Shown: in pieces, positions 5,641 to 50,916 of the stretch
How positions within the stretch are numbered: the stretch's first letter is position 1
Layout of the letters: each line of letters starts with the position of its first letter
Origin: Mesotaenium endlicherianum
Taxonomy: Eukaryota
Reading direction: 5' to 3'
Assembly (NCBI GenBank): GCA_009602735.1
Contig: WELA01000805.1
Span: forward strand, 745,115 to 796,030
Length of the DNA: 50,916 nucleotides
Notes under the pieces: model-generated
What the model was told of the DNA's origin: nothing
The model's database searches: none
The model's input: only the letters and a program-made list of their open reading frames with translations
Position numbers and translations under genes: made by a program

Positions 5641-26197
<20,557 letters not shown>

Positions 26198-30666: not shown

Positions 30667-32833
30667 AGGCGTACGCTATGAGATCGAGTGTGCATCATCG
30701 GTATACAACACATATCAAACAAGCAGACTTTGCTACAATATAGTCAAAATTACATGTGGCTTTATAGCCAAAAAAGGGAGTCAACCGTCGAATGTTTATA
30801 TTTATAAGTGTGTACTATCCAGAGCAAGCACCTCAAGACTGTATATTGGTAAAAGAACAATCACTGAAGTATGGTCCAAAAGATCACTAGAAGTCCATGG
30901 TCTGATCTTTGTAGAGTAGTCTCATGCAAGGATTTAAGCTGTGACTTTTCTCACCACTTGTGAAGTTCTTCAAGTGATTGGAAGCCAGAAGGGCTTGTTC
31001 TTCACAAGAGAGACTAGTGCACCTAAAAACACAAGAGATAGAAGTGTAAGTTTCACTGATAACTCTGTTACTTACAACTTGCCATGGTGCACTCTTAAAA
31101 AGATGTCACACTAGGTACATCTCTACTACTTTATACTCTTGGAAAATTGGCGTGCAATGCAGCGGATTCAATGCACGATGTCACTTTAGGAAGCTCTTAT
31201 ATGTCCACAAATGTGTGCAAGGCACGTACTAGCTCTTCTATAGGTGTCGTGCGTTACGAGGTCGGGTGCAAGGAGTGTGTACTCTCGAGAGTGAGCACCT
31301 CAAGATTGTGATCGGGTAGGAAAACAACTAATGAAGTATGGCCCAAAAGATCACTGGAAGCACATCATGATCTTCAAGAGTAGTCCTATGCAAGAGTTTA
31401 AGCTGTGACTTTGCTCACCACTTGTGAAGTTCTTCAAGTGACTGGAAGCCAGGAGGGCTTGCTCTTCACCAGAGAGAGACTAAGTGGTCCTGAAAACACG
31501 AGAGATAAAAATGTAAGCTTTACTGATGATCTCTGTCATTTACATTTGGCATGATGGACTTCTAAAGATATGGTTCTCTAGGGTGATCTCTAGTACTTAT
31601 ACTCCTGGAAACGCGGCGTCGTATGCGGCGGATCCAATGCATGTAGTCACTCTAGGAGGCTCTCTTATGTCCACTAATGTGTACAAGGCATGTACTAGCA
31701 CTCCTATAGGCTAAGCATAACTCAAACCAATCAAAGAAGCACGTAGAATATGCTACGTGTCTCTCATTGGTGGAGCTTACCTTGGGTGATTCTACCTAGA
31801 TAGCGCCTCAAAAGTGGATTTGGAACTTGAGGAAACTTCCTCAAGGAGTAGGTGATGCAGTCACCAAGTTATAGCCTCAATGATGCACTTATAATATGGA
31901 AATGTAAGACTTATATAGCCTAAGGGGCTCGCGGGTTTGTGCGCACAAAGCAAAGGGTCCTTAGGGTCACGAATAACGAACAATGTCACCTTTCGGTACA
32001 TTGAGTCACAAATTGGCCGTTGGGTGTAATTCCGCTAGGGGCCAAAAAAGGGTGCGGACTAGATCGCGCCTATCTTGCTCGATACTTGACCAAATGACGC
32101 GAAACCGGTGCCATTCGGAAGATGCTTCAACGCGCTACACATTAGTAACTTGGAAATCTAGAAAAGATCAACATATGGATGCGTAAAGTCAATGCAAAGT
32201 TGGTCTTCCTCGGTTGATGGTTCACACATGTGGAGCTCGATTTTGTACGCCAACCTCGACTTAATAAATCATGACATAGGCTAGGCATAACTCAAACCAA
32301 TCAAAATTAGATGCAATGAGTATGCTAAATGCTTCTCATTGGTGGAGCTTACCTTGATCAATGCTACCTAGATAAAGCCTCAAAAGTAAATTTGGAGGAA
32401 GCTTCCTCCAGGGTTAGGTGATGCAGTCACCAAGTTATAGCTCCTATGATGCACATTTATCATTGAAATGCAAAGATTATGTGGTCTAAGGAGCTTGCAA
32501 ATTTGTGTGCACAAAGCTAAGGGTCCTTGGGGTCACATATAGCCAACAATGTGACCTCTGGGGCTCAAGTTGGTCTCTGGTGACATTCCGCTAGGGGCCC
32601 TCTTGGTGGTGCAAACTAGATCGCGAATATCTCGTTCGATACTTGACCAAATGACGCGAAACCGGTGCCATTTGGGAGGTGACTCGACGCGCTACACTTT
32701 AGTGACTTGGAAATCTAGGGGAAAAAAACATATGGATACGTAAAGTCAAATGGAAGTTGGTCCTCCTTGGTTAATGGTTTATACTTGTGTAGCTTAGTTT
32801 TGTGCATCGACCTCGACTCAATAAATTATGACA
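30667..32833 (-). mobile_element. Short non-coding X+Y element, older copy (contains nested copy 31245-32276)
   Basis: The right end reads TGTCATAATTTATTGAGTCG on the minus strand. The left end aligns, with decay, to the CACGACA end of the family. Flanked by TTTT on both sides (30663-30666 and 32834-32837). Confidence 0.75.
31245..32276 (-). mobile_element. Short non-coding X+Y element nested in a copy of its own family
   Basis: Plus-strand ends TGTCGTG...CATGACA with a 4-bp TSD TAGG (31241-31244 and 32277-32280). Removing it rejoins the host copy. Confidence 0.88.
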
Positions 32834-35449: not shown

Positions 35450-35610
35450 AAACGTTTCCGGTCACAATCTTTGCCTTTTGGCGTAGATATACCATTTTTG
35501 CATGTTGTTTCAGAGATCATGTTCTTCAATTTCCTCATGTAACGTAGAAAAAATTGTCTACGCCCTTGGCGGAGATGGGCGTAGATCCAATTCCTGGGGC
35601 GTTTTTCGGA
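35450..35610 (-). repeat. Dispersed repeat F, inverted copy
   Basis: Reverse complement aaaaacgccccaggaattggatctacgcccatctccgcc matches 36026 onward and 41086 onward. Confidence 0.75.
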
Positions 35611-36020
35611 GTTGGTTCATATTTTTGGCCAAACCGATTTCAGAGTGTGCTCTGGGCTATATAGTGCTACTAAACTTTGAATTTGCAACTCACGTGTAGA
35701 CGTTGGCAATATGTTCCAACTTAGGAAATTGTCGTGAGGTAAGAAGAGGAACAAACGAAGGCGTTGCGAGTGAAAAGCAATAGAAAAATGAGTATCAACA
35801 TATCACGCTCATATATCATATGTATTTACCAACTTCTTCACTCTAGAAGTGGTCCACGGTGCGACATATTTCAGGATCCCTACGATTTACTAGCAAGCGG
35901 TTGGGAAGTGCCCTAGGTCCTTAACATGATTCATCACGTTTTTTGGGACGCTCCCTAAATTGTAATATCAGGGTTCACAAAGTAGATTCGTTTGCATTCT
36001 GAAATTGGTTTGGGCCCGGA

Positions 36021-36860
36021 CGCCCAAAAACGCCCCAGAACTAGATCTCTCCCCATCTCCGTCCAAGGCTTATACGGATATTTTCTCCACTAACCCAGGC
36101 AAAGACGGAGAAAATGACATCTCCGCCACAGGCGGAGATGGTATTTCTACGCTCAATGGCAAATATTGTGTCTCTGAACAAATCTTCACCTTTGCCAAAA
36201 CTGTCAAAAAATGGCGAAGTATGGAAAGCCAATCCGAAAATGGTCACTTTCAAAAATGGTCATGGAAATTGACCACTTTGTTGTAAATGGTTAGTGCAAT
36301 TGGCCAAGTGTGCCAATAATGTTATTGTAGATCAATAAGTTAAAACAAATGAGAGGTTGACTCCCAATTTCACTTTGTTTGAGTTCGAGTCGTGGGGTGG
36401 CGGAAGTGATATGCACGTTTATTGGTCGAAAAATTGCGTAGTCGCACTGTGCATGGTCGCTCGTGGTCGCTCGGGCTCACGACAAATTAAGAATGGCCTG
36501 ATTGGCCCTAGCCTTTACGAGGAGCCCAAAGTCGACGGGTGGTAGGGGTACTTCTAACAAGCCTGTCCCCACTTGGCTTCCCCTCGCACCCCTGCTTCAT
36601 TCCTATTGGTCAACAATAGGTTGGTACCGAGGGGGGCTCTAACAAGCTCGTCCCCCTTGGCCCGGTCCCTTATATCAGCGCCGAGGGGGAGAAAGTCCTT
36701 GCCTCCCCCTTGCATGTGATTGGTCGAGGGCCGTAGGGTGTCCTTATTGCTGGTACACCCGTGGCCGCTCGAAAGATAATAAGTTATTTGTTTTCATGCG
36801 AGATGTGGGGAAGTGTGTCGTGGCCAAAAATCTGTTGCCACCAAGTCGCCCGCCGTGGCC
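36021..36860 (+). repeat. Dispersed repeat F (unclassified element end)
   Basis: cgcccaaaaacgccccagaact...ggcggagatggtatttc...aaaaatggtcatgg...tggtacacccg is collinear with 41081-41740. Confidence 0.7.
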
Positions 36861-36924: not shown

Positions 36925-38192
36925 TGTCATGATTTATTGAGTCGAGGGCGTCGCACGTACCCGTGCTTCAAGCGTGTGAGCGATCAACCTCGGACAAGCA
37001 TTTGCCTCTTTGAATTTGTGTGATTTAGTCTATTATGTTGCTATGCTTGCATGCCTAGGGTATAGATGCCACGTGACAAGTCAACACTTGACACATGCGC
37101 TAGACCTACTTTAGGCATCAGGTACAAGTCACCGCCCGCTTGGTCCCAAGTAGCAGCTCAAGCTACCCGGCACTTAGGAGACAGTGCCTAAGAAGGCCAC
37201 GTGGCACCACCGGAAGGTGGCGGGCTCCAGTTTTGGCCCATGTCCCCCTCTCTGCCCGTCATCAAGCAACAGGAGCCACCATGGGCCACGTGGAGCCACC
37301 GGAAGATGGCGGGCTTCACGACTTGGCCCGGGTACACTTACGTACCCGTCACTCGGGCCCAGGCACTCCTAAGTGCCCGACACTCAAATGGCGAGGCCAC
37401 CAAGGGCACCCAGGGCCACCGACCGACAGCTGCAGCCCGTCGGTTGGCCCATGCGCACCCGACCAAGATGTGCTCAGCCGACAGGAACCGTCACAGCCTG
37501 CAAGAGTACCACAGCTTAGCGGGCAACCGTCCGATTGCACAAACATAAGTGTGCAAGCTTGTCTTACAAGCTTAGCATGTGCTAAAGTGAGCTCGACCTA
37601 TCACACGCATTTAGCATATTCTAGCATCTCGCTTTTGATTGGATTGAGTAGTAACTAGCCTATTGGAGCGCAAGCACAATAGGTACATGTGTGTGCGTGT
37701 AGAGGTAGATCTTAGATGAAGACTACATGCATTGAATCTGCGCCTAACGCGCCGGGTTTCCAGGATTATAAGTGCTAGAGATGTCCCTAGAGAGACATCT
37801 TTTTAGAAGTCCCATTATGCCAGTTGTAAGTCAGAGAGATTATCAGTAAAGCTTACACTTTTATCTCTTGTGTTTTCAGGACCACTTAGTCTCTCTCTTG
37901 TGAAGAGCAAGTCTTGCTGGCTTCCAGTCACTTGAAGAACTCTACAAGTGGTGAGCAAAGTCACAACTTAAACCCCTGCCATAGGACTACTCTTGAAGAT
38001 CATGATGTGCTTCCAGTGATCTTTTGGGCCATACTTCATTAGTTGCATTCCTACCGATGAAAACATCCAACGCTTGCCTCCCTCTTTGGCTATAAAGCCA
38101 CATGTTTTGTAGACTTCATTGCAGCAAAGCCTGCTTGCTTATTATGCATTGCTTGTGTCGATAGTACGCACCCGACCTCCTACCGCACGACA
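36925..38192 (+). mobile_element. Short non-coding X+Y element (1268 bp)
   Basis: Ends TGTCATG...CACGACA with a 4-bp TSD TCGT (36921-36924 and 38193-38196). 36925-38057 is collinear with 45189-46388 (X) and 38058-38192 with 50646-50779 (Y). Confidence 0.92.
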
Positions 38193-40930: not shown

Positions 40931-41080
40931 TCAGCTGTCTCTGCAGTGTTGGCTTGCTTGAAATTGCCGCTCTTTTTCTTGATTTGAAAATTAAAGTTAA
41001 CGGCCTCAAGCCAAAAGATTTTTCTTCTTTCTCAGGCACCATTGGCATCTTGGAAAGTCTACTTGATTACTCTGAGCCAA

Positions 41081-41740
41081 ACGCCCAAAAACGCCCCAGA
41101 ACTGGATCTACGCCCATCTCCGCCCAGGACGTAGACGGTTTTTTCTTCCCTAAGCTAGGCAAAGGTGGAGAAATGGACATCTGCACGATAGGCGGAGATG
41201 GTATTTCATTGCTCAAAGGCACAGATGTTGTCTAGGAACAAATTTTCATCTGGACCAAAATAGTCGAAAAGTCTAAGTATGGCACAATGGCAAGCCTTTC
41301 AAAAAATGGTCATGGTCGTTTTCCAACTTCGTTTCCAAGAGTTAAGTTGCTGAACATATAATGTTATTGTGACCACGTAGTCCAAAAAACTTTGAAAAAA
41401 GAAGCAAAAGGTACAACTTGTCAATGGTCCGAGATTGGCCGACCACAGTCGACCGGCTAGTTACTTGGACGTGGCCCAAGTCGTGGGCTGGCGGAAATGG
41501 GATTGACAAATCCGTCCCCCCTTGTTTGTTCCCTTTTGGACTTTCTTGTCAGCGAGGGGGGGTCCTCGCTTGTCCTTGACCCCCTCCTTATCCATGATTG
41601 ATCGTCGGGCAAGCATGGTCGTCGTTGTTGGTACACCCGCGGCCATGTTGTCAGGTCGATATATTTAGTTGACGCAAATTTGCGTCATGAAATCACGTTA
41701 TTGTGTCGGCACGGCTTGCTTGCCGTGCCGTTCAACTCAG
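41081..41740 (+). repeat. Dispersed repeat F, second direct copy
   Basis: Collinear with 36021-36860; interrupted at 41741 by an X+Y element. Confidence 0.7.
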
Positions 41741-42290
41741 TGTCGTGCATTAGGAGGTCGAGTGCGCATCAGCAGCATAAGCAATACACAAATGGGCAAG
41801 TAGGCTTTGGTGCAATGGAAGCGGAAATGCATGTGGTCTTAAGGCCAAAAAGAGGGTCAACTGTTAAATGTTTTAAGGCTGTAATTTGGTAGGACAACAA
41901 TTAATGAAGTATGGCCCAAAAGATCATTGGAAGCACATCATGATCTTCAAGAGAAATCCCTTGGCAGAGGTTTAAGCTTTGACTTTGGTCACCACTTGTG
42001 AAGTTCTTCAAGTGACTGGAAGCAAAGAGGGCTTGCTTTTCACAAGAGAGATTCTAAATGATTCTGAAAATACGAGAGATAAAAGTGTAAGCTTTAATGA
42101 TACCTCTGCTACTTACAAATGCCATAATAAACTTTTATAAATTTGGCCTTCGAAGGGCATCTACTGCTATATACTCCCTGCAAAACCAGCGCTGAAGGCG
42201 GCGGATTCAATGCACACAGTCACAATGGGAGGCTCTCCTATGTCCACGAAAATAGAGGCAAGGCGCGTACTAGCTCTTCTATTGGCTAAA
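41741..42290 (-). mobile_element. Truncated X+Y element
   Basis: Starts with tgtcgtgcattaggaggtcg (the Y end) and continues through the block gaagtatggcccaaaagatca...caccacttgtgaagttcttcaagtgactggaagc shared by all copies. The other end was not found. Confidence 0.8.
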
Positions 42291-42857: not shown

Positions 42858-45188
42858 CGAAATGAATCTTGCCTTATTCAAGATATATATTTCATTTAAA
42901 TATACAAGATCAGAGCTATATAGAAGCATGTAATTGAGGGAGCAATCTTTGCCCTTACAATGAATTTCGTTTACTCACCTCTACCCCTTGACTCACTTAT
43001 CGTAGTGTGCCATAGTCTTACACTAACTCAAGGCATATGAAAAGTAGGAACTTGAGGACTAGAGCTTCTCCTCTAGAAAATCATGGCATTTTCCCTAACA
43101 AGCATACAAGCATGTATAAGCGCATACATAACATCAGAGGATTGAATAGCAAAGGCGTTCTCATTCAAATGACCATAATGTAGCTAAATCACATCTTACT
43201 GACAAAAATGAATCTTGCTTATTCACAATAAATATATTTCATTTAGGTATATAAGATCAACGATAGGTGGAAGCGTGTAAAATCAAGGAGCGATCTTTGC
43301 CCTTAGAATGAATTCCGTTTACTCATCTATTCCCCTTGACTCACTTACCGTAGTGTGCCATAGTTGCACACTAACACAAGGCACAAGAAAGAGGCGAGCT
43401 TGAGGACTAAAGCTTCTCCTTTAGAAACTCATGGCCTCTTGCCTACCAGGCATACAAGCATGTATAAGCACATACACAACACCAGGGGCTAAATAGCAAA
43501 GGCGCTCTCATTCAGATGACCATTATGTAGTTAAAACACATGCCACTGACTTAGGTGCAAAACTATGGAATCTGTTCGCTATGTGACCCCAAAATGTCAA
43601 AAAGGCATAACTCTGTCAATACTTCTCCAAATTGAGCACACTTAATGGAAATGGACGCATCTTGACAAGACCTTTTCAAAAAGTTCTAGTTCGCTCCATT
43701 TGCAGCACAGACAAAGACGCCATGTCAATTTCCGTGAAAGCTGGTCATAATAACGAACCCAAAAGTGCACACATCACTTGCAAGAAGAAAATTCGACTCT
43801 AAAGCCTCCTGTCCAGATTGAGGGACCACGAGATCCCAGCCTGCTATGTACCTAGTGACCACCTGCTTGACCACGGCGCAAGGTGCGCCGTTTCGTGGGA
43901 AACCCGTTATGTTGAGACCCACGGATCTAGGTATAACGACCATATTATTGGTCGGTTGACTGAAGTCCTAACTGTTCAGTTGATTGACAACGGCTCCGCT
44001 TACCCAGGAGTTAACCACACTGGTAGGACATCGGTTTACCAAATCTAGTCAACCTCCCGACTTTCAGTATACTACGATCACATGTGCCAATCTACAAATA
44101 ATAATACAAATGAATATATATATTCTCAGCGTACCGAAGCTAAGTATATTGACTAATATCAAACGAGCTTACTATATGTCAACCTACTGATATTATATCC
44201 TATACATATCTGATAAATAAATCTCAGCAAAGTATACTATGATACAAAAGTCATCCTGCTGACCTTTTCATCAAAGTCAGCAAACTACAATATGATACAA
44301 AAGTCATCCTGCTGACCTTTTTGACAAAGTAAGTAAATTCGCATTATATCGACATACATTCATTTAGATGAACTCGCACATGAAAGTATATTGACATAAT
44401 ACTTATTTAGTGCTGTATTTATACATGCAAATAATTAAATAAATAATGAACTGATTCATTACACTGACTTAGGTGCAAAACCATGGAATTTGTCCACTAT
44501 GTGACCTCGAGACATTAAAATAATAACTCAGTCAATACTTAACCAAATTGAGCACAATTAACAACAACGGCCGCGTCTCGACGGTGCTTCCAAATAGGTC
44601 TTGGTTGCTTAATTTGGTGCGCAGACGAAGACGCCATGTTCATTTAAGGAAAAGCTGGTCATAATAACGAACCAAAAATGCCGCACATGACTTGCAAGCA
44701 GAAATCCGATTGTAAAGCCTGTTGTCCGATATGAGGGACCACGAGCTCTCGGCCTGCTAGGTACCTAGTGACCACCTGGTTGACCACGCGTTAAGTTGGG
44801 ATCCACGGATCTAGGTGTAACGACCGTATAAATTGGTCGGTTGATCAAAGTCCTAATTGTTTAGTTGACTGACGACAACTTCGCCTTCCCAGGAATTGAC
44901 CACACTGGGAAGACATCGATTTACCGAATCTCAGTCGACCTCCCAACTTTCAGTATACTACGAATTGGTCACGTATGTCAATTTACATATAATTATCTAA
45001 ATGATGACATCTATCCTCCGCGTACTTAATCCAAGTGTACTGACTATTATTATGCGAGCTTACTATATATCAACGTACTAATGTTATATTTTATATATAT
45101 TGACAATCTGAGCAAACTTTACAATGATACAAAAGTCATCCCGCTGACCTTTTTCACAAAGTGAGCAAATTACACTATGAGACAAAAG
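42858..45188 (+). mobile_element. Family D solo-LTR-like element, outer copy (interrupted by 43204-44463 and again at 45189)
   Basis: 42858-43203 plus 44464-45188 is collinear with the inner copy. Contains 53-bp sub-repeats (gatacaaaagtcatcctgctgaccttttt). Confidence 0.65.
43204..44463 (+). mobile_element. Family D solo-LTR-like element, inner copy (1260 bp)
   Basis: Ends (aaa)AATGAATC...GATTCATTACA, with the first three bases of the left end degenerate. Flanked by CTGAC (43199-43203 and 44464-44468). Confidence 0.7.
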
Positions 45189-46487
45189 TGTCATGAATTA
45201 TTGAGTCGAAGTCGTTGCACGTACCCGAGCTACAAGCGTGTGAGCGATCAACCTCGAACGGGCACTTGCCTCTTTGCATTTGTGTGATTTAGTTTATTAA
45301 GTTGCTATGCTCGCATGCCTAGGGGATAGATGCCACGTGACAAGTCAACACTTGTCACGTGCGCCAGACCTACTAGACGCACCAGAGGTACGGGCCGAAT
45401 ACCCGTCCAAAACTGGACGGTGGCACTTGACTTTGTTTTCATAGCCACTACAGGCCGCAGGGACCCAAGCGACAGCCCGAAGCAAAGGCAACAAGGGTCG
45501 AGGAGGCCACGTGGAGCCATCGGAAGGTGGCGGGCTTCTGCGCTTGGCCCAGGCTCACCCGGCAGCCAGCCCGAGCACTTGATTGTGCTCGGCGCCAAGC
45601 GACGGGAGCCACCGAGGCCACGTGGCGCCACCGGAAGGTGGCGGGCACCTTAAGTGGCCCAAGGGCACTTAAATGCCCGTCACTCGAGCCCAGGCACTCC
45701 TAAGTGCCCGACACCCAAGTGGCGAGGCCACCAAGGGCACCCAGGGCCACCAACCGACAGCTGCAGCCCGTCGGTTGGCCCATGCGCACCCGACCAAGAT
45801 GTGCTCAGCCGACAGGAACCGTCACAGCCTGCAGGAGTACCACAACTTTGCGGGCAACCGTCCGATTGCACAAACATAAGTGTGCAAGCTTGTCTTACAA
45901 GCTTAGCATGTGCTAAAGTGAGCTCGACCTATCACAAGAATTTAGCATATTCTAGCATCTCGCTTTTGATTGGATTGAGTAGTAACTAGCTTATTGGAGC
46001 GCTAGCACGATAGGTATATGTGTGTGTATGCAAAGGTAGATCTTAGATGAAGACTACATGCATTGAATCCGCGCCTAACCCGCCGGTTTTCCTGGAGTAT
46101 AAGTACTAGAGATGTCCCTAGAGAGACATCTTTTTAGAAGTCCACATTATGCTAGTGGTAAGTCACAGAGATCACCAGTAAAGCTTACACTTTTATCTCT
46201 TGTGTTTTCAGGACCACTTAGTTTCTCTCTTGTGAAGAGCAAGCCTTGCTGGCTTCCAGTCACTTGAAGAACTTTACAAGTGGTGAGCAAAGTCACAGCT
46301 TAAAACCCTGCCATAGGACTACTCTTGAAGATCATGATGTGCTTCCAGTGATCTTTTAGGCCATACTTCATTAGTTGTATTCCTACCAATTTATAGTTTT
46401 GAGGTGCTCACTCTGGAGAGTACACACCCCTTACTCCTAAAAAGATCTCTCTTTGCTTCGCTTACAAGCATTTAGAATCTTCAGCGT

Positions 46488-49400
46488 ATGCCTACTCGTA
46501 GTGGGCTCACTTATCAGCCTTACAACGAAAGGGTTAGTGGGGAAGACTCAGACTCAGATCTCAGTGCCATCACTGAACCTTCTGAAGGGGATTATCAAGT
46601 GCCTCTTCAACCTGTAGCTGTCATTGAGCCACAGCCTCATTGGACTTACATTGATCTACAGAGCTCTATGGCTGGAGACCAAGATACGAAGGTAGATAGG
46701 GCCTCTCTCTTCCGTTTCAGCGGTAGGCCATGCACCTGTGATCTGGACGACACCATTTCTGAGTTCGAGGCTGACTTTGAGAACGCAAAGCTCAAGACTC
46801 CTACGCTCACCAAACGCCAGGTGTTTGGCACGCTTATGCGTTACTTTCTTCACGAGGCTCGCGACACCTACCATGAGAAGTCGGCTGAGATCTACGCACG
46901 CACAGAGCCCGTGGGGGACCCGCCAGTGGATACCCCCATATTTGATCTTGTCCAGGCCTTCTAGAACGTTCTCAGAGAGGAGTTTCAGTCTGCCACCGAA
47001 GAGAAGGTGTACGAGCTGCACCGCTTCTACCGCCGCAAGGATGAGACGATTCGCATGATGTACCGGCGCCTGACCCACCTACGACGAGATGTGGGCACTG
47101 TTACCGACCGGGAGGCTGTGGAGATCTTCTTGCGAGCCATCGATCCGCGTCTGAGGGAGAGGGCCATCGCTCCTCTCATTGATCGCGCCGGCGTCGACTA
47201 CACGCTGGAAGACGCCTGCAAAGCTGTAGAACGTCAAAGTCTGGCTGCCGCACGGAGCAACATCAGTGATCGTGTGGGCTTGGCATCCACTGGCATACGC
47301 CAGGAAGCACCGGTGTTGCCCTCCTCGACAGCACGCGTTGCTCCTGCCCGCCAGCATCAGCAACAGCAATCGCAACGCTCGCAGTTGCCAGCACAGACCC
47401 AGTCTCACAACGCGCCACGTGGCCGTATCTCCATGGCCGCAACGACGGGCGACCTTTGCTGGGCATGTGGAGAGACGGGCCACACACGTCGTGAGTGCAC
47501 TCTGGCGCAGAACGGCAAGCCAGGCGACTGCACCTACTGCGGCAAGGCAGGCCATTTGCAAGTCGTATGCTTGCAGAAGCAGCGCGACACGGAGGTTGGA
47601 CGCGCTCATGATGATCCTGCGCCCTCTTCAGGCCAGCAAGACATGCAAAACCCTCGCATAAGAGGACGCCCCACAATCACGGCAGCCACGGCTACGACAA
47701 ACGCCGCGTTGACCCCCAGGGAGGACATCTTCAACTATGACAATCTCAGCGATGCGCTAGCTGCGTCCGAGGCGGAGAACGCGCGACACCGCGCCCTATT
47801 CGCAGCCGACAGCTTCGACGCCTGCGGAGCCTTGAACGCGCACACACTCCCGGCCGACGCTGTGGCACTGACATCTGGCGACAACGCAGCACGTGCACGC
47901 ACGCCCAATGCCGACATCTGGCAGTCCCTGCGCCGGCCACATGCCGCAGCAGCAGTGTTGCAGCCATGCGCTCGTCCGCATTACGACAGAGCGCCTATGA
48001 CGACAGCTACGGCTACAACGAATGCCGCGCTAATCCCTGGGGCCGACTATTGCAGCTTTGACGACATTAGCGATGCGCTCGTGGAGGCCAATGCCGAGAT
48101 CGCGCGTCTACGAGGCCTCTGTGTCGCCGACAGCTATGATGCGTGCGCAGCGCAGTTCATGCACAATCCTTCGATCGACGTTACAAGGGTAACATCCGCT
48201 GGTGGCGCAACTCTTGCGTGCACTCCCAGCGCCGACATTAGGTAGCCAGAGTGCCTGCCAAGTTGTGTAGCAACAGCGTTGCAACCACGCTCATGTTCGC
48301 ATGACGACGAAGCGCCTACGACGGGAGCTGCAAGCGCCGACGGCGATGCGTCTACAGTCTCAACGCACCTCGCGCTGACACCTCTCAGCTGCGAGAGGGT
48401 ATGCGCCAACGCGTTGACAGATGGCAGACCCCAGGCCTGCGCAGCTCTGGAAGCCCACGCTGCACACGACCCCACTGACGGGTCGATGCTGCAGCTACGC
48501 GCACGTCCGCACGACGACGAAGCGCTCTCGACGAGGGCTGCATTCGCCGACAGTGACGCGTTTGCAGATCCATCGCGCCCGGCTCTGACAGCTATCAGCA
48601 GCAACAGGGCGGGCCTCGACAAGCTGACAGGTGGCAGGCCCTCGGCCTGTGCAATCCTGGCAGCCCACGCTGCACACGGCCCCGCTGACGGGTCAACGCA
48701 GCCGCCTCGCGCACGTCCGCACGACGACGGAGCGCCCATGACGAAGGCCGCAGGCACCGACATCGACGCCTATGCAGGCCCGCCTCGCCCCGCGCTGACA
48801 CCTGTCAGCAACGACACGGCGAGTACCAACAGGATAATCGGTGGCAGGCCCAAGGCCCGTGTAGTCCTGACAGTCGACGATGCGAGCGTACCCACTGACG
48901 GGTCCCCGCAGCAGCCAGCGCAGCCCGCAAAGGCGTCGACACACGCGCCCTTAGCGTTCGCTGCCCTGATGGAGCCAGCAGGGCTGCACAGCGCATGTGC
49001 AACGACAGGTGACGCCCTGACGCGGACCCGCCAGTCGGTCATTCCGGCTGCAGCTTCAGCAACCATGCGAGTTACGGGCGCGCGGACGTGCCCAGTGTTG
49101 CGGACGAGCACGCAGCCACGGGACAGCCGCCCGCTGCTGGCTGCTGCTAGCAACAGGTCCCAGCGGTCGCCGCCACGTATCGCGCACACGCTGGCCAAAG
49201 CGCCGACCTTCGGCAGTGGCATGGCCAGGCGCACACGCCCATCTATACCGACGCAACAAGTTGCTCAACGCACGTTCGGCAGCAGCGCAGTCGACACAGC
49301 TCCGACACCAGCTGCGCACAGCAATTGCGCACATGGCGCAACACCGGCAGCCAACGACGCGGACGGCTCCTATGTTGCCACGCGCCCTACCACAGCATCT

Positions 49401-50588
49401 CCAGCCTGGCACAGGTCTGGGACAAACCTGCCGCAGGACTGGCAGAAGTCTGGCAGAGGTTCAGGCCAAGTTGGGAGTAGGCTAGGCACAGGCCTGGCAG
49501 AGGTTCGACACAGGTCCGGCTCGCACCTGCTTGCAGCCGCCGCAACTACGCCCTCTCGTCGTTCCACGCACGCCTCGACCACCTTCGTCTGCCACGCACG
49601 CACGCTGCCACTTGGCAGGAGCGCAACAGCCGCCAAGGCACCACGCAAGCGTATGCTGCTGACAGCAGCCGGTCGGCCAGCAGCCTCACACAAGAGAAAT
49701 GGGCCTGACTAGGGACGCCGCACAGAGGAGGCACCACGTCTTCCGCGTTCCTTCCGCGTGCTCGAGCCGCCGCCAGCGCCTGTTGCTCTCGCGCCTCACG
49801 CGCTCGCCTCGCCTATGACGATGGTGCAGCTGAACGCTGAAGTCATCTCCCTGGCCTTGCACCGCATGATAGCGGTCTCCTTCGCAGACCTTGGAGTAAC
49901 GCTGGAGGCGACGAGGCAGGCAGCTCAGCTGCTGCTGCAACCTCGCGGTGCCGGTCTACACACCGCCGCGGGCAAGCCAGCGTCCGACGCCGCAGCCGCG
50001 GTGCTCTCTGCACCCGCGCGATCTGCGCATGAGCGCAGGATGATAAGCAATCCTAACGCTGCCTTTTTGGATAACGCGCAGGGGATCGTGCTCGTCAACA
50101 CTCAGGCTCCGCAGCGGATCATGTTCGACATGGGCGCGCAGCCGGTCCTCATTAGCCTCAGCTACTTCCGACGGCTGGGCCTTTCTTCGAACGACTTGGA
50201 GGATTTGCCGACGCGGATCAACACGGCAGCTGGCACCTCCGAGTTCGTGACCGGGCGCACACGACTGGCGCTTCGCTTCACCTTCAGGCCAGGGACAGCG
50301 GACGAGACAACCATCCATCGGCACGCCCTCGTGACTCGCTCTGAGACCTTTGACGTCCTCTTGGGACAGGAGGTGCTCTTTCCCATCGGCGCCGCGGTTG
50401 ACAACTGGACCGAGCGCGTCCAGTATCGGCCCGACTGGCGTTCAAGAGGAACCCGCACGACTTCTTTGCCGCTTGACATCGTGGACCGACGTCCGACCAT
50501 GACCACTCTCTACGGCTTCCACGTCGGCTGCCCAAACCTACAACTGGCGCACGTGCCAGCTGAGACTGGTTCTGTCGCAAGTGCTTAG
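46488..50588 (+). pseudogene. Gag (two CCHC zinc knuckles) fused to a retropepsin-type aspartic protease; no RT, RNase H or integrase
   Basis: Four ORF-track entries lie in one frame, separated by single TAG codons (46962, 48243, 49710). Motifs: gag-like F.NVLREEF...ETIRMMYRRL; CWACGETGHTRREC (47457); CTYCGKAGHLQVVC (47529); protease IMFDMGAQPVLIS...FDVLLGQEVL (D at 50127). Confidence 0.9.
47670..48920 (+). repeat. In-frame tandem repeats within the gag-PR ORF (2 x 321 bp, then 3 x 210 bp)
   Basis: TATTNAAL recurs at 47688 and 48009. HDD(E/G)A recurs at 48300, 48510 and 48720. Confidence 0.85.
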
Positions 50589-50627
50589 CGTTAGCACTAG
50601 GCAGCAAGAGCTCATCAGCTGGAGGCT

Positions 50628-50643
50628 GAGAGCTGGGGGGGGG
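50628..50643 (+). other. Polypurine tract (plus-strand primer) candidate
   Basis: gagagct followed by G9, then AT and TGAAAC, directly downstream of the ORF. Confidence 0.7.
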
Positions 50644-50841
50644 ATTGAAACATCCAACACTTGCCTCCCTTTTTGGCTATAAAGCCCCATGTATTGTAGA
50701 CTTCATTATAGAAAAGCCTGCTTGCTTATTATGCATTGCTTGTGTCGATAGTACGCACCCGACCTCCTATTGCACGACAGCTGTCATGAGTTATTGAGTC
50801 GAAGTCGTTGCACGTACCCGAGCTACAAGCGTGTGAGCAAT

Positions 50842-50916
50842 TGTAATGAATCAGTATATTAGTAGATATAATATTCATTTAAATATAATAGTTAATTTAG
50901 TTCACCCTGCTGAACT
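50842..50916 (+). mobile_element. Left end of a family D-related element inserted in the second X repeat
   Basis: Begins TGTAATGAATCAG, the reverse complement of the D end at 44451-44463, and shares ttcatttaaatata with about 42890. X homology stops exactly here. Confidence 0.65.

Follow-up and report, generated by a model that had tools for sequence, protein, structure and literature searches.

Retroviruses and LTR retrotransposons integrate from linear cDNA, and circles that carry two LTRs are regarded as by-products. Integration from the junctions of such circles was put forward in the 1980s and has been largely abandoned. The element family described below resembles several known systems in part. 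KnitGypsy-Dnmt3 of Klebsormidium nitens is presented in figure legends of de Mendoza et al. 2018 (PMC5890265) as carrying DIRS-like repeats in the order A-coding-B-A-B together with Gypsy domains, and the passages of that paper covered here contain neither a mechanism nor an analysis of a palindrome, self-priming or junctions. Compared by description, our family is alike in that its protease relatives carry C5-DNMT, RT, RNase H and integrase domains, and differs in that its long copy lacks both the DNMT and pol. The A-ORF-B-A-B layout in a Gypsy element had thus been noted in a 2018 legend, and the mechanism is what is proposed here.

The same split order of direct repeats (A1-B1-A2-B2) is exhibited by PAT, Ngaro, VIPER and TATE, which are arranged as A1-ORF-B1-A2-B2 and, like our family, have a short non-autonomous A+B unit, SIRE being a solo A2-B2 unit (according to the relevant passages of PMC6681497). 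However, those elements use a tyrosine recombinase, whereas the clade examined here has a DDE integrase, a protease, a polypurine tract (PPT), TG...CA ends and 4-bp duplications. In Tf1/sushi elements and Tcn1, the RNA 5′ end pairs with the primer-binding site (PBS) instead of a tRNA, by means of the first 11 nt in Tf1 (PMC7175516 and PMC6317226). Our clade likewise has a PBS that pairs with the predicted RNA 5′ region over 10-16 bp and not with a tRNA, but it differs from these elements in that they are described there as normal two-LTR proviruses made from linear cDNA, with no internal att site. Finally, HIV-1 and foamy virus integrases can, in vitro, cleave a palindrome of the form CA-spacer-TG internally (PMC1180852, PMC1905944 and PMC11680205). 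The two-LTR circle junctions of these viruses are fused cDNA ends, which is the likeness to the joints described here; their palindrome arises by joining and is itself the junction (CAGT|ACTG, with a 4-nt spacer), and the circles are a side path. In our clade, by contrast, the palindrome is part of the LTR sequence and has a 2-nt spacer, and the junction lacks an att site. The literature covered, which lies outside Repbase, theses and most subscription papers, yielded no description of circle-dependent integration or an internal att palindrome in this clade.

The stretch of DNA analysed in full (the window; 50,916 nt) is eukaryotic, dense in repeats and interrupted by N gaps. Comparison of the window with itself yields one family made up of a long copy, L (45189-50843), and four short copies. 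L runs from a first X repeat through a gag-protease frame, the PPT, Y and the dinucleotide GC into the first 62 bp of a second X. The first X (X1, or repeat A; 45189..46432, + strand) begins TGTCATG, is preceded by unrelated DNA without Y, and is interpreted as the distal U3-R-U5. It includes a TATA-like TATAAG (46098..46103, +), a putative promoter element about 30 nt upstream of the predicted primer described below. The decayed gag-protease frame (46488..50588, +) has a CCHC motif at about 47457-47501, an aspartyl protease at about 50094-50372 and three internal in-frame stops, and no RT, RNase H, integrase or DNMT domain was found in it, which marks L as non-autonomous. Degenerate tandem repeats of about 210-320 bp (47676-48929) enlarge this frame, and in contigs their number differs between copies. 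The PPT (50630..50643, +; G-run 50635-50643) leads into the first Y (Y1, or repeat B; 50643..50779, +), which ends CACGACA and is interpreted as the proximal U3. Together, Y, GC and X form the palindrome GACA-GC-TGTC (GACAGCTGTC; 50776..50785, +), the predicted integrase cutting site, which has no second exact copy in the window. The start of X2 (50782..50843, +) is identical to X1 at 58/60 positions; an unrelated repeat interrupts it from 50844, and the remainder of L lies outside the window. Two complete direct LTRs flanking an internal region are not seen, the 5′ end of L consisting of X only.

The ends that the linear cDNA of this family should have can be predicted from L, and the self-priming site was located independently of the joints. 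Positions 46119..46141 (+), the predicted self-primer at the RNA 5′ end, are complementary to 46433..46455 (+), the predicted PBS, and no tRNA-type TGG follows 46432. This pairing ranks first among 466 internal 27-mers and was matched by 0 of 1000 shuffles. If the Tf1 mechanism applies, the first base of the PBS at 46433 places the right cDNA end at 46432, and the PPT G-run, which stops at 50643, puts the left cDNA end at 50643/4. An earlier note on this DNA had used the TG after the PPT as its landmark for the Y side, which must be abandoned: that TG is not conserved, contigs reading GATTAAAAC or GATAAAAAC at this place, and the landmark is therefore the PPT end. Nor does the PPT stand directly before the terminal TG of a 3′ LTR, as the next letters are GATT, CGAG or CACT and the PPT lies about 50-200 bp ahead of the TG that opens X. 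Two further candidates were discarded, namely the post-PPT TG as an att end, for the same lack of conservation, and a normal element with Y-X LTRs, given that the ends and target duplications sit at the start of X and the end of Y.

The reading that we consider probable is that the joint between X and Y in the short copies is the end-to-end junction of a two-LTR circle that was opened by integrase at the internal palindrome. The RNA would start about 30 nt past the TATA box in X1 and end in X2; since it must hold R at both ends, it has to run from X1 into X2, which makes Y-GC-X the true LTR. Its 5′ end would prime on the site after 46432 as in Tf1, for which the complementarity is seen directly, and normal LTR reverse transcription would then give Y-GC-X-gag-pol-Y-GC-X, whose ends presumably offer no TG/CA site to integrase. 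These cDNA ends would be joined, mostly flush within 1 nt and at times with loss from one end, microhomology or filler; it is the position of the joints that is observed. The DDE integrase is then predicted to nick after each CA of GACA-GC-TGTC, in keeping with the observed termini and 4-bp duplications, and this staggered cut would leave the CA of both ends recessed behind a 5′ overhang of 2 nt, as retroviral 3′ processing does. Because the circle is opened at the internal palindrome, its junction would end up in the genome. Three products are seen, X-ORF-Y-GC-X-joint-Y, X-ORF-Y and X-joint-Y. Cutting of linear cDNA or of a one-LTR circle would give X-ORF-Y, which could not supply a 3′ R, and joined ends alone would yield X-ORF-Y-GC-X-joint-Y; the solo X-joint-Y units likely result from recombination between X1 and X2 or from a double cut.

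Alignment to L bears out the earlier note in that the four short copies join X to Y differently and at the positions it gave. Copy A (36925..38192, +) reads TGTCATG...CACGACA within a TCGT target duplication, and its joint (38056-38058) links X at about 46387-46390 to Y at about 50643-50646 in L numbering, with the loss of about 45 bp of the X end and a 3-nt microhomology, GAT. Copy B (30667..32833, -) is older, is split by copy C and has a degenerate right end and a plausible but weak AAAA duplication; at its joint (30808-30798), 46427 is followed by about 10 nt (TTATAAATAT) and then 50648, making it near flush, with a few bases lost and an AT-rich filler. Copy C (31245..32276, -), nested in copy B within a CCTA duplication, joins the full X end at 46432 to 50755, that is, to the final 25 bp of Y (joint 31270/31269). 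A tandem duplication was entertained as the source of this last joint and rejected, the copy being a nested insertion with its own duplication. Copy D (41741..42289, -) is truncated at its 5′ end and joins X at about 46396-46398 to 50645 (joint about 41877-41874), with about 35 bp of the X end lost and a 2-nt microhomology, TT. The claim that the Y side stays near the PPT also holds, since three of the four breakpoints fall within 5 nt of the end of the G-run. The X side was said to vary over about 50 bp, and a spread of about 45 bp is indeed seen; however, it too has a landmark, 46432, which copy C reaches exactly and copy B to within 5 nt.

A joint at both predicted ends is expected by chance at about 5e-5 per copy, and all four window joints lie there. 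Within the conserved block of the four copies (X 45990-46432 plus Y), no other gap of at least 8 nt occurs, the listed gaps all lying at or before 45893, and all three large deletions touch the X/Y seam. A rough null model that ignores microhomology gives 4e-6 for three deletions that all have an end no more than 3 nt away from the flush joint. TG...CA ends with 4-bp duplications are observed for copies A and C and for two X-ORF-Y monomers among the relatives (L057 and L058), and weakly for copy B.

Joints in contigs from four DNA runs of one sample (runs labelled X1-X4), which may be the sample from which the window itself comes, place these four in context. Among the joints listed (15 of 174, and 15 of 124 in a second listing), the best supported links 46432/3 to 50643/4 and is thus flush within 1 nt, and the 15 of 174 include joints that connect 46427-46433 to 50643-50644 once the intervening letters are read. 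The flush joint reaches a depth of 2081 (run X4) as against 48-110 for the long contigs listed, although depth is not copy number, and its variants differ by a single base (CCTT|GATT versus CCTTA|ATT). Raw RNA reads from three studies contain the same flush joint as loose ends (6, 6 and 11 reads). One contig joint keeps 46432, has lost 20 bp of Y and carries a 9-nt filler, of which 8 nt match X nearby in copy C. Given that the usual joint is flush, the four joints of the window are variants, and the claim that joints are generally imprecise is not supported in that form: 4/4 independent joints in relatives (see below) are flush as well. One-sided deletion, microhomology and filler together are the signature of end-joining repair. 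Relative to the flush joint, the four in the window are small indels or have lost sequence on one side; they are likely end-joining scars, and we lean towards regarding them as the imprecise minority of such joining. That the joints are all different is true of the window's four only; beyond it, the best-supported joints are flush and shared. Identical joints, which the earlier note would have counted against its reading, were therefore found in part. A single flush joint is common to many copies, which fits precise joining and inheritance equally.

The window joints could also be viewed as ordinary internal deletions, in which case the short copies would be MITE- or Ginger-like derivatives of a TG...CA element. 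Short terminal inverted repeats and 4-bp duplications are in agreement with this view, as is one listed contig joint that lies elsewhere (46376 to 49200), and solo units may later have been mobilised as DNA. However, the scatter of breakpoints through gag and pol is not seen, as all four window joints lie at the two predicted ends, and the relatives are RT-bearing Gypsy elements with an X-joint-Y unit at the 3′ end. We therefore judge this explanation very improbable. Even less credence is due to an assembly artefact or a chance nesting of repeats, notwithstanding the N gaps and dense repeats of the window and the several metagenome contigs that are collapsed circles: target duplications flank copies A and C, the joints recur in independent contigs and raw RNA reads, and the same anatomy recurs in unrelated records.

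Among the few RNA reads aligned (49-165 per run), no pile-up of starts or ends was found. In two studies, 11 and 28 RNA reads enter X at 46210 from an exon upstream of the start presumed near 46125, which counts against the model. This point of entry (46210-46212) is a polypyrimidine-CAG site, and the exon matches the upstream X of copy C; the short copies thus appear to be spliced in transcripts.

On the basis of its domains and repeat layout, the window family belongs to a Gypsy-Dnmt3-like clade. The nearest protease relatives carry C5-DNMT within the Pol polyprotein, full proteins having the order gag-PR-DNMT-RT-RH-integrase (for example, P0058), and this domain is missing from the deleted copy in the window. 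Likewise, the Ty3/Gypsy order gag-PR-RT-RH-IN with a DDE integrase is found in relatives (P0058 and L083), the window copy having gag-PR only. The named relatives are from Closterium, Scenedesmus and Monoraphidium, and a PHD finger is present in many relatives whose labels read Scenedesmus or Monoraphidium. The PHD-bearing chlorophyte Gypsy elements REM1 and Chlamyvir, cited here as a lead only, resemble them in this respect. Because 32 aligned protease domains proved too diverse for scanning, further relatives were fetched with a Pol alignment, which supplied 80 metagenome loci, the best among 345, and another 10 from bacterial bins.

The palindrome proved to be a property of the clade. It is present 3′ of the integrase in 23 of the 76 integrase-bearing loci, with 24 hits against 0.34 expected and 0 hits in 393 kb upstream, and it ranks first of 1024 palindromic 10-mers, the next having 5 hits. 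Grouped at 90% integrase identity, these 23 loci fall into 20 clusters, with a median of 51% identity between pairs, and in 21 of the 23 a G-run lies no more than 320 bp upstream of the palindrome. The exact palindrome is missing from the other 53 loci, of which many stop early or are monomers. Beyond the palindrome, a perfect primer/PBS repeat of at least 12 bp occurs in 10 of the 15 relatives with enough sequence, compared with 1 of 150 shuffles, and the sequences of these repeats differ between loci. The parts of the A-coding-B-A-B layout are seen as A-ORF-B-A in L, L047 and L081 and as ORF-B-A-B in L017, L035 and L084, the five parts never standing on one contig. All six 5′ X starts in relatives (6/6) are preceded by unrelated DNA.

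This repeat order is that of DIRS, PAT and Ngaro elements, and the palindrome could conceivably serve as a recombination site for a tyrosine recombinase. Such a recombinase domain was sought in 41 of 50 listed ORFs (9 from two decayed loci were left out) from L047, L064, L081 and L083, two of which are whole-element circular contigs, and none was found, which refutes integration of this type for these loci barring action in trans. Moreover, 30 of 31 loci retain an intact DDE triad, and the duplications outside the TG...CA ends are 4 bp long and variable in sequence (TCGT, CCTA, ATTA and TGTG). We regard integration by tyrosine recombinase as highly implausible.

The best matches of the window protease are two families, S and T (E 6e-25 to 8e-12), and these provide the closest view of complete ends. 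In family S, L057 and L058 are X-ORF-Y monomers within TGTG and ATTA duplications; six independent 3′ ends stop at Y and three continue via GC into X. L017 (= L049), L035 and L025 share the joint TTTTC|AGTTG, in which the last base ahead of the PBS (L058 and L007) is followed directly by base 3 past the PPT G-run. In family T, L084 ends PPT-Y-GC-X-joint-Y with the same geometry, its joint position being good to about 2 nt because the PBS boundary is taken from its sister L083. Across these two distant families, 4/4 independent joints are flush. An internal att site, as the earlier note had proposed, accordingly finds support: elements end at a clade-wide palindrome with 4-bp duplications, and the predicted X-ORF-Y-GC-X-joint-Y ends and X-ORF-Y monomers both exist in relatives. 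Its reading of the joints as cDNA end junctions is upheld insofar as the ends predicted by primer site and PPT are fused in three families, circularisation itself being likely.

A single flush joint that recurs in many copies, and in 3/3 joints of family S, could instead be an old seam, fixed in an A-ORF-B-A-B template and passed on with it, with the four window variants arising as deletions after insertion. The window copies are indeed old (73-92% identical to L), and the microhomology of 2-3 nt at the joints of copies A and D could also drive later slippage. In family S, a T is common to 3/3 independent Y2 copies, with C in 8/9 Y1 copies (14 of 220 random triples do likewise), and the distances between an element's own Y1 and Y2 (7 and 10 of 115) are no smaller than those between elements; the Y2-specific base and these distances fit an inherited terminal unit. 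Other comparisons oppose it. L084 has Y1 identical to Y2 at 106/106 positions when its sister differs at 5, and no X column separates X2 from X1 (0/112 variable). PBS and PPT boundaries are hit in three families with unrelated repeats, and a seam made once need not track them. All three large deletions fall at the seam and none in the rest of the conserved block. In addition, standard LTR strand transfers are not known to copy sequence 3′ of R. On balance, an old seam is unlikely.

Alternatively, the cDNA ends may have been brought together by a jump of reverse transcriptase or by head-to-tail joining of two cDNAs, with no circle being closed by host repair. Flush joints that vary by one base (CCTT|GATT versus CCTTA|ATT) would suit a jump, and the Y2-specific base of family S could reflect a second template. 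A switch of this kind can be seen in one relative: the terminal X2 of L062 (L062:3361-3878) runs into inverted X positions 1-180, the switch lying at the primer/PBS repeat, and the element ends at an inverted att half, followed by flank. L062 is a fold-back cDNA that nevertheless integrated, and since its terminus is an inverted X start, the att half can serve as a right end whichever repeat it belongs to. However, one-sided deletions with microhomology, and a filler that matches nearby X, speak against these routes as the source of the joints, and we consider them unlikely.

If the preferred reading of a circle junction opened at the internal palindrome is correct, its implications extend beyond this locus. 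Our judgement is evenly balanced on the broader claim that a widespread green-algal and streptophyte Gypsy clade has shifted its integrase site to the inside of the LTR, that the two-LTR circle is the obligate precursor of a replication-competent insertion, and that each full copy stores a fresh junction. Should this be true, a natural family of DDE integrases would be built on the circle-junction route, the joints would record host end-joining events, and genomes would store thousands of fossil records of cDNA end repair. The clade would also form a bridge between LTR elements and the split-repeat DIRS and Ngaro elements and explain the puzzling layout of KnitGypsy, and it would provide a defined 10-bp substrate for tests. 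Element finders that require two LTRs would overlook these elements or mistake X-joint-Y for a solo LTR.

Several observations on the relatives are recorded here in their own right. The DNMT domain precedes RT in some loci (families S and T) and stands between RNase H and integrase in others (L023 and L064); both arrangements (L003-L082) carry the palindrome, and many have a PHD finger. L083-L089 are eukaryote-type Gypsy elements inside bacterial genome bins, probably as contamination, and the palindrome is exact in four of the seven. At the end of one contig (L081:15120-15193), two GACAGCTGTC words stand 64 bp apart with a G-run before each, and L018:1-7285 has two pol regions, tandem or nested, the second without an intact Y after it. 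Searches for gag homologues among longer proteins, which were weak, found none. Viral contigs retrieved by protein comprised two loci, where the repeats are only terminal assembly overlaps; those retrieved by a 16-nt pattern comprised 27 loci, none with a retroelement domain, and were set aside as chance.

The window itself holds further features. At 25040-26194 (+), a host-like frame includes the Pfam dsrm motif for binding double-stranded RNA (E 5e-6). Unclassified repeats comprise three segments related to one another, of which two are mutually inverted (35463-35613, 36020-36224 and 41080-41282), and a 345-bp tandem pair (42860-43550). A second repeat family, whose sequence starts TGTAATGAATCAG, occupies 43544-45188 (-) and 50844-50916 (+) and is arranged in tandem units; a CA-G-TG seam lies near 44461, and this family, too, may have its att seam inside. 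L is inserted into one unit of this family, and a new copy of the same family has in turn inserted into the X2 of L.
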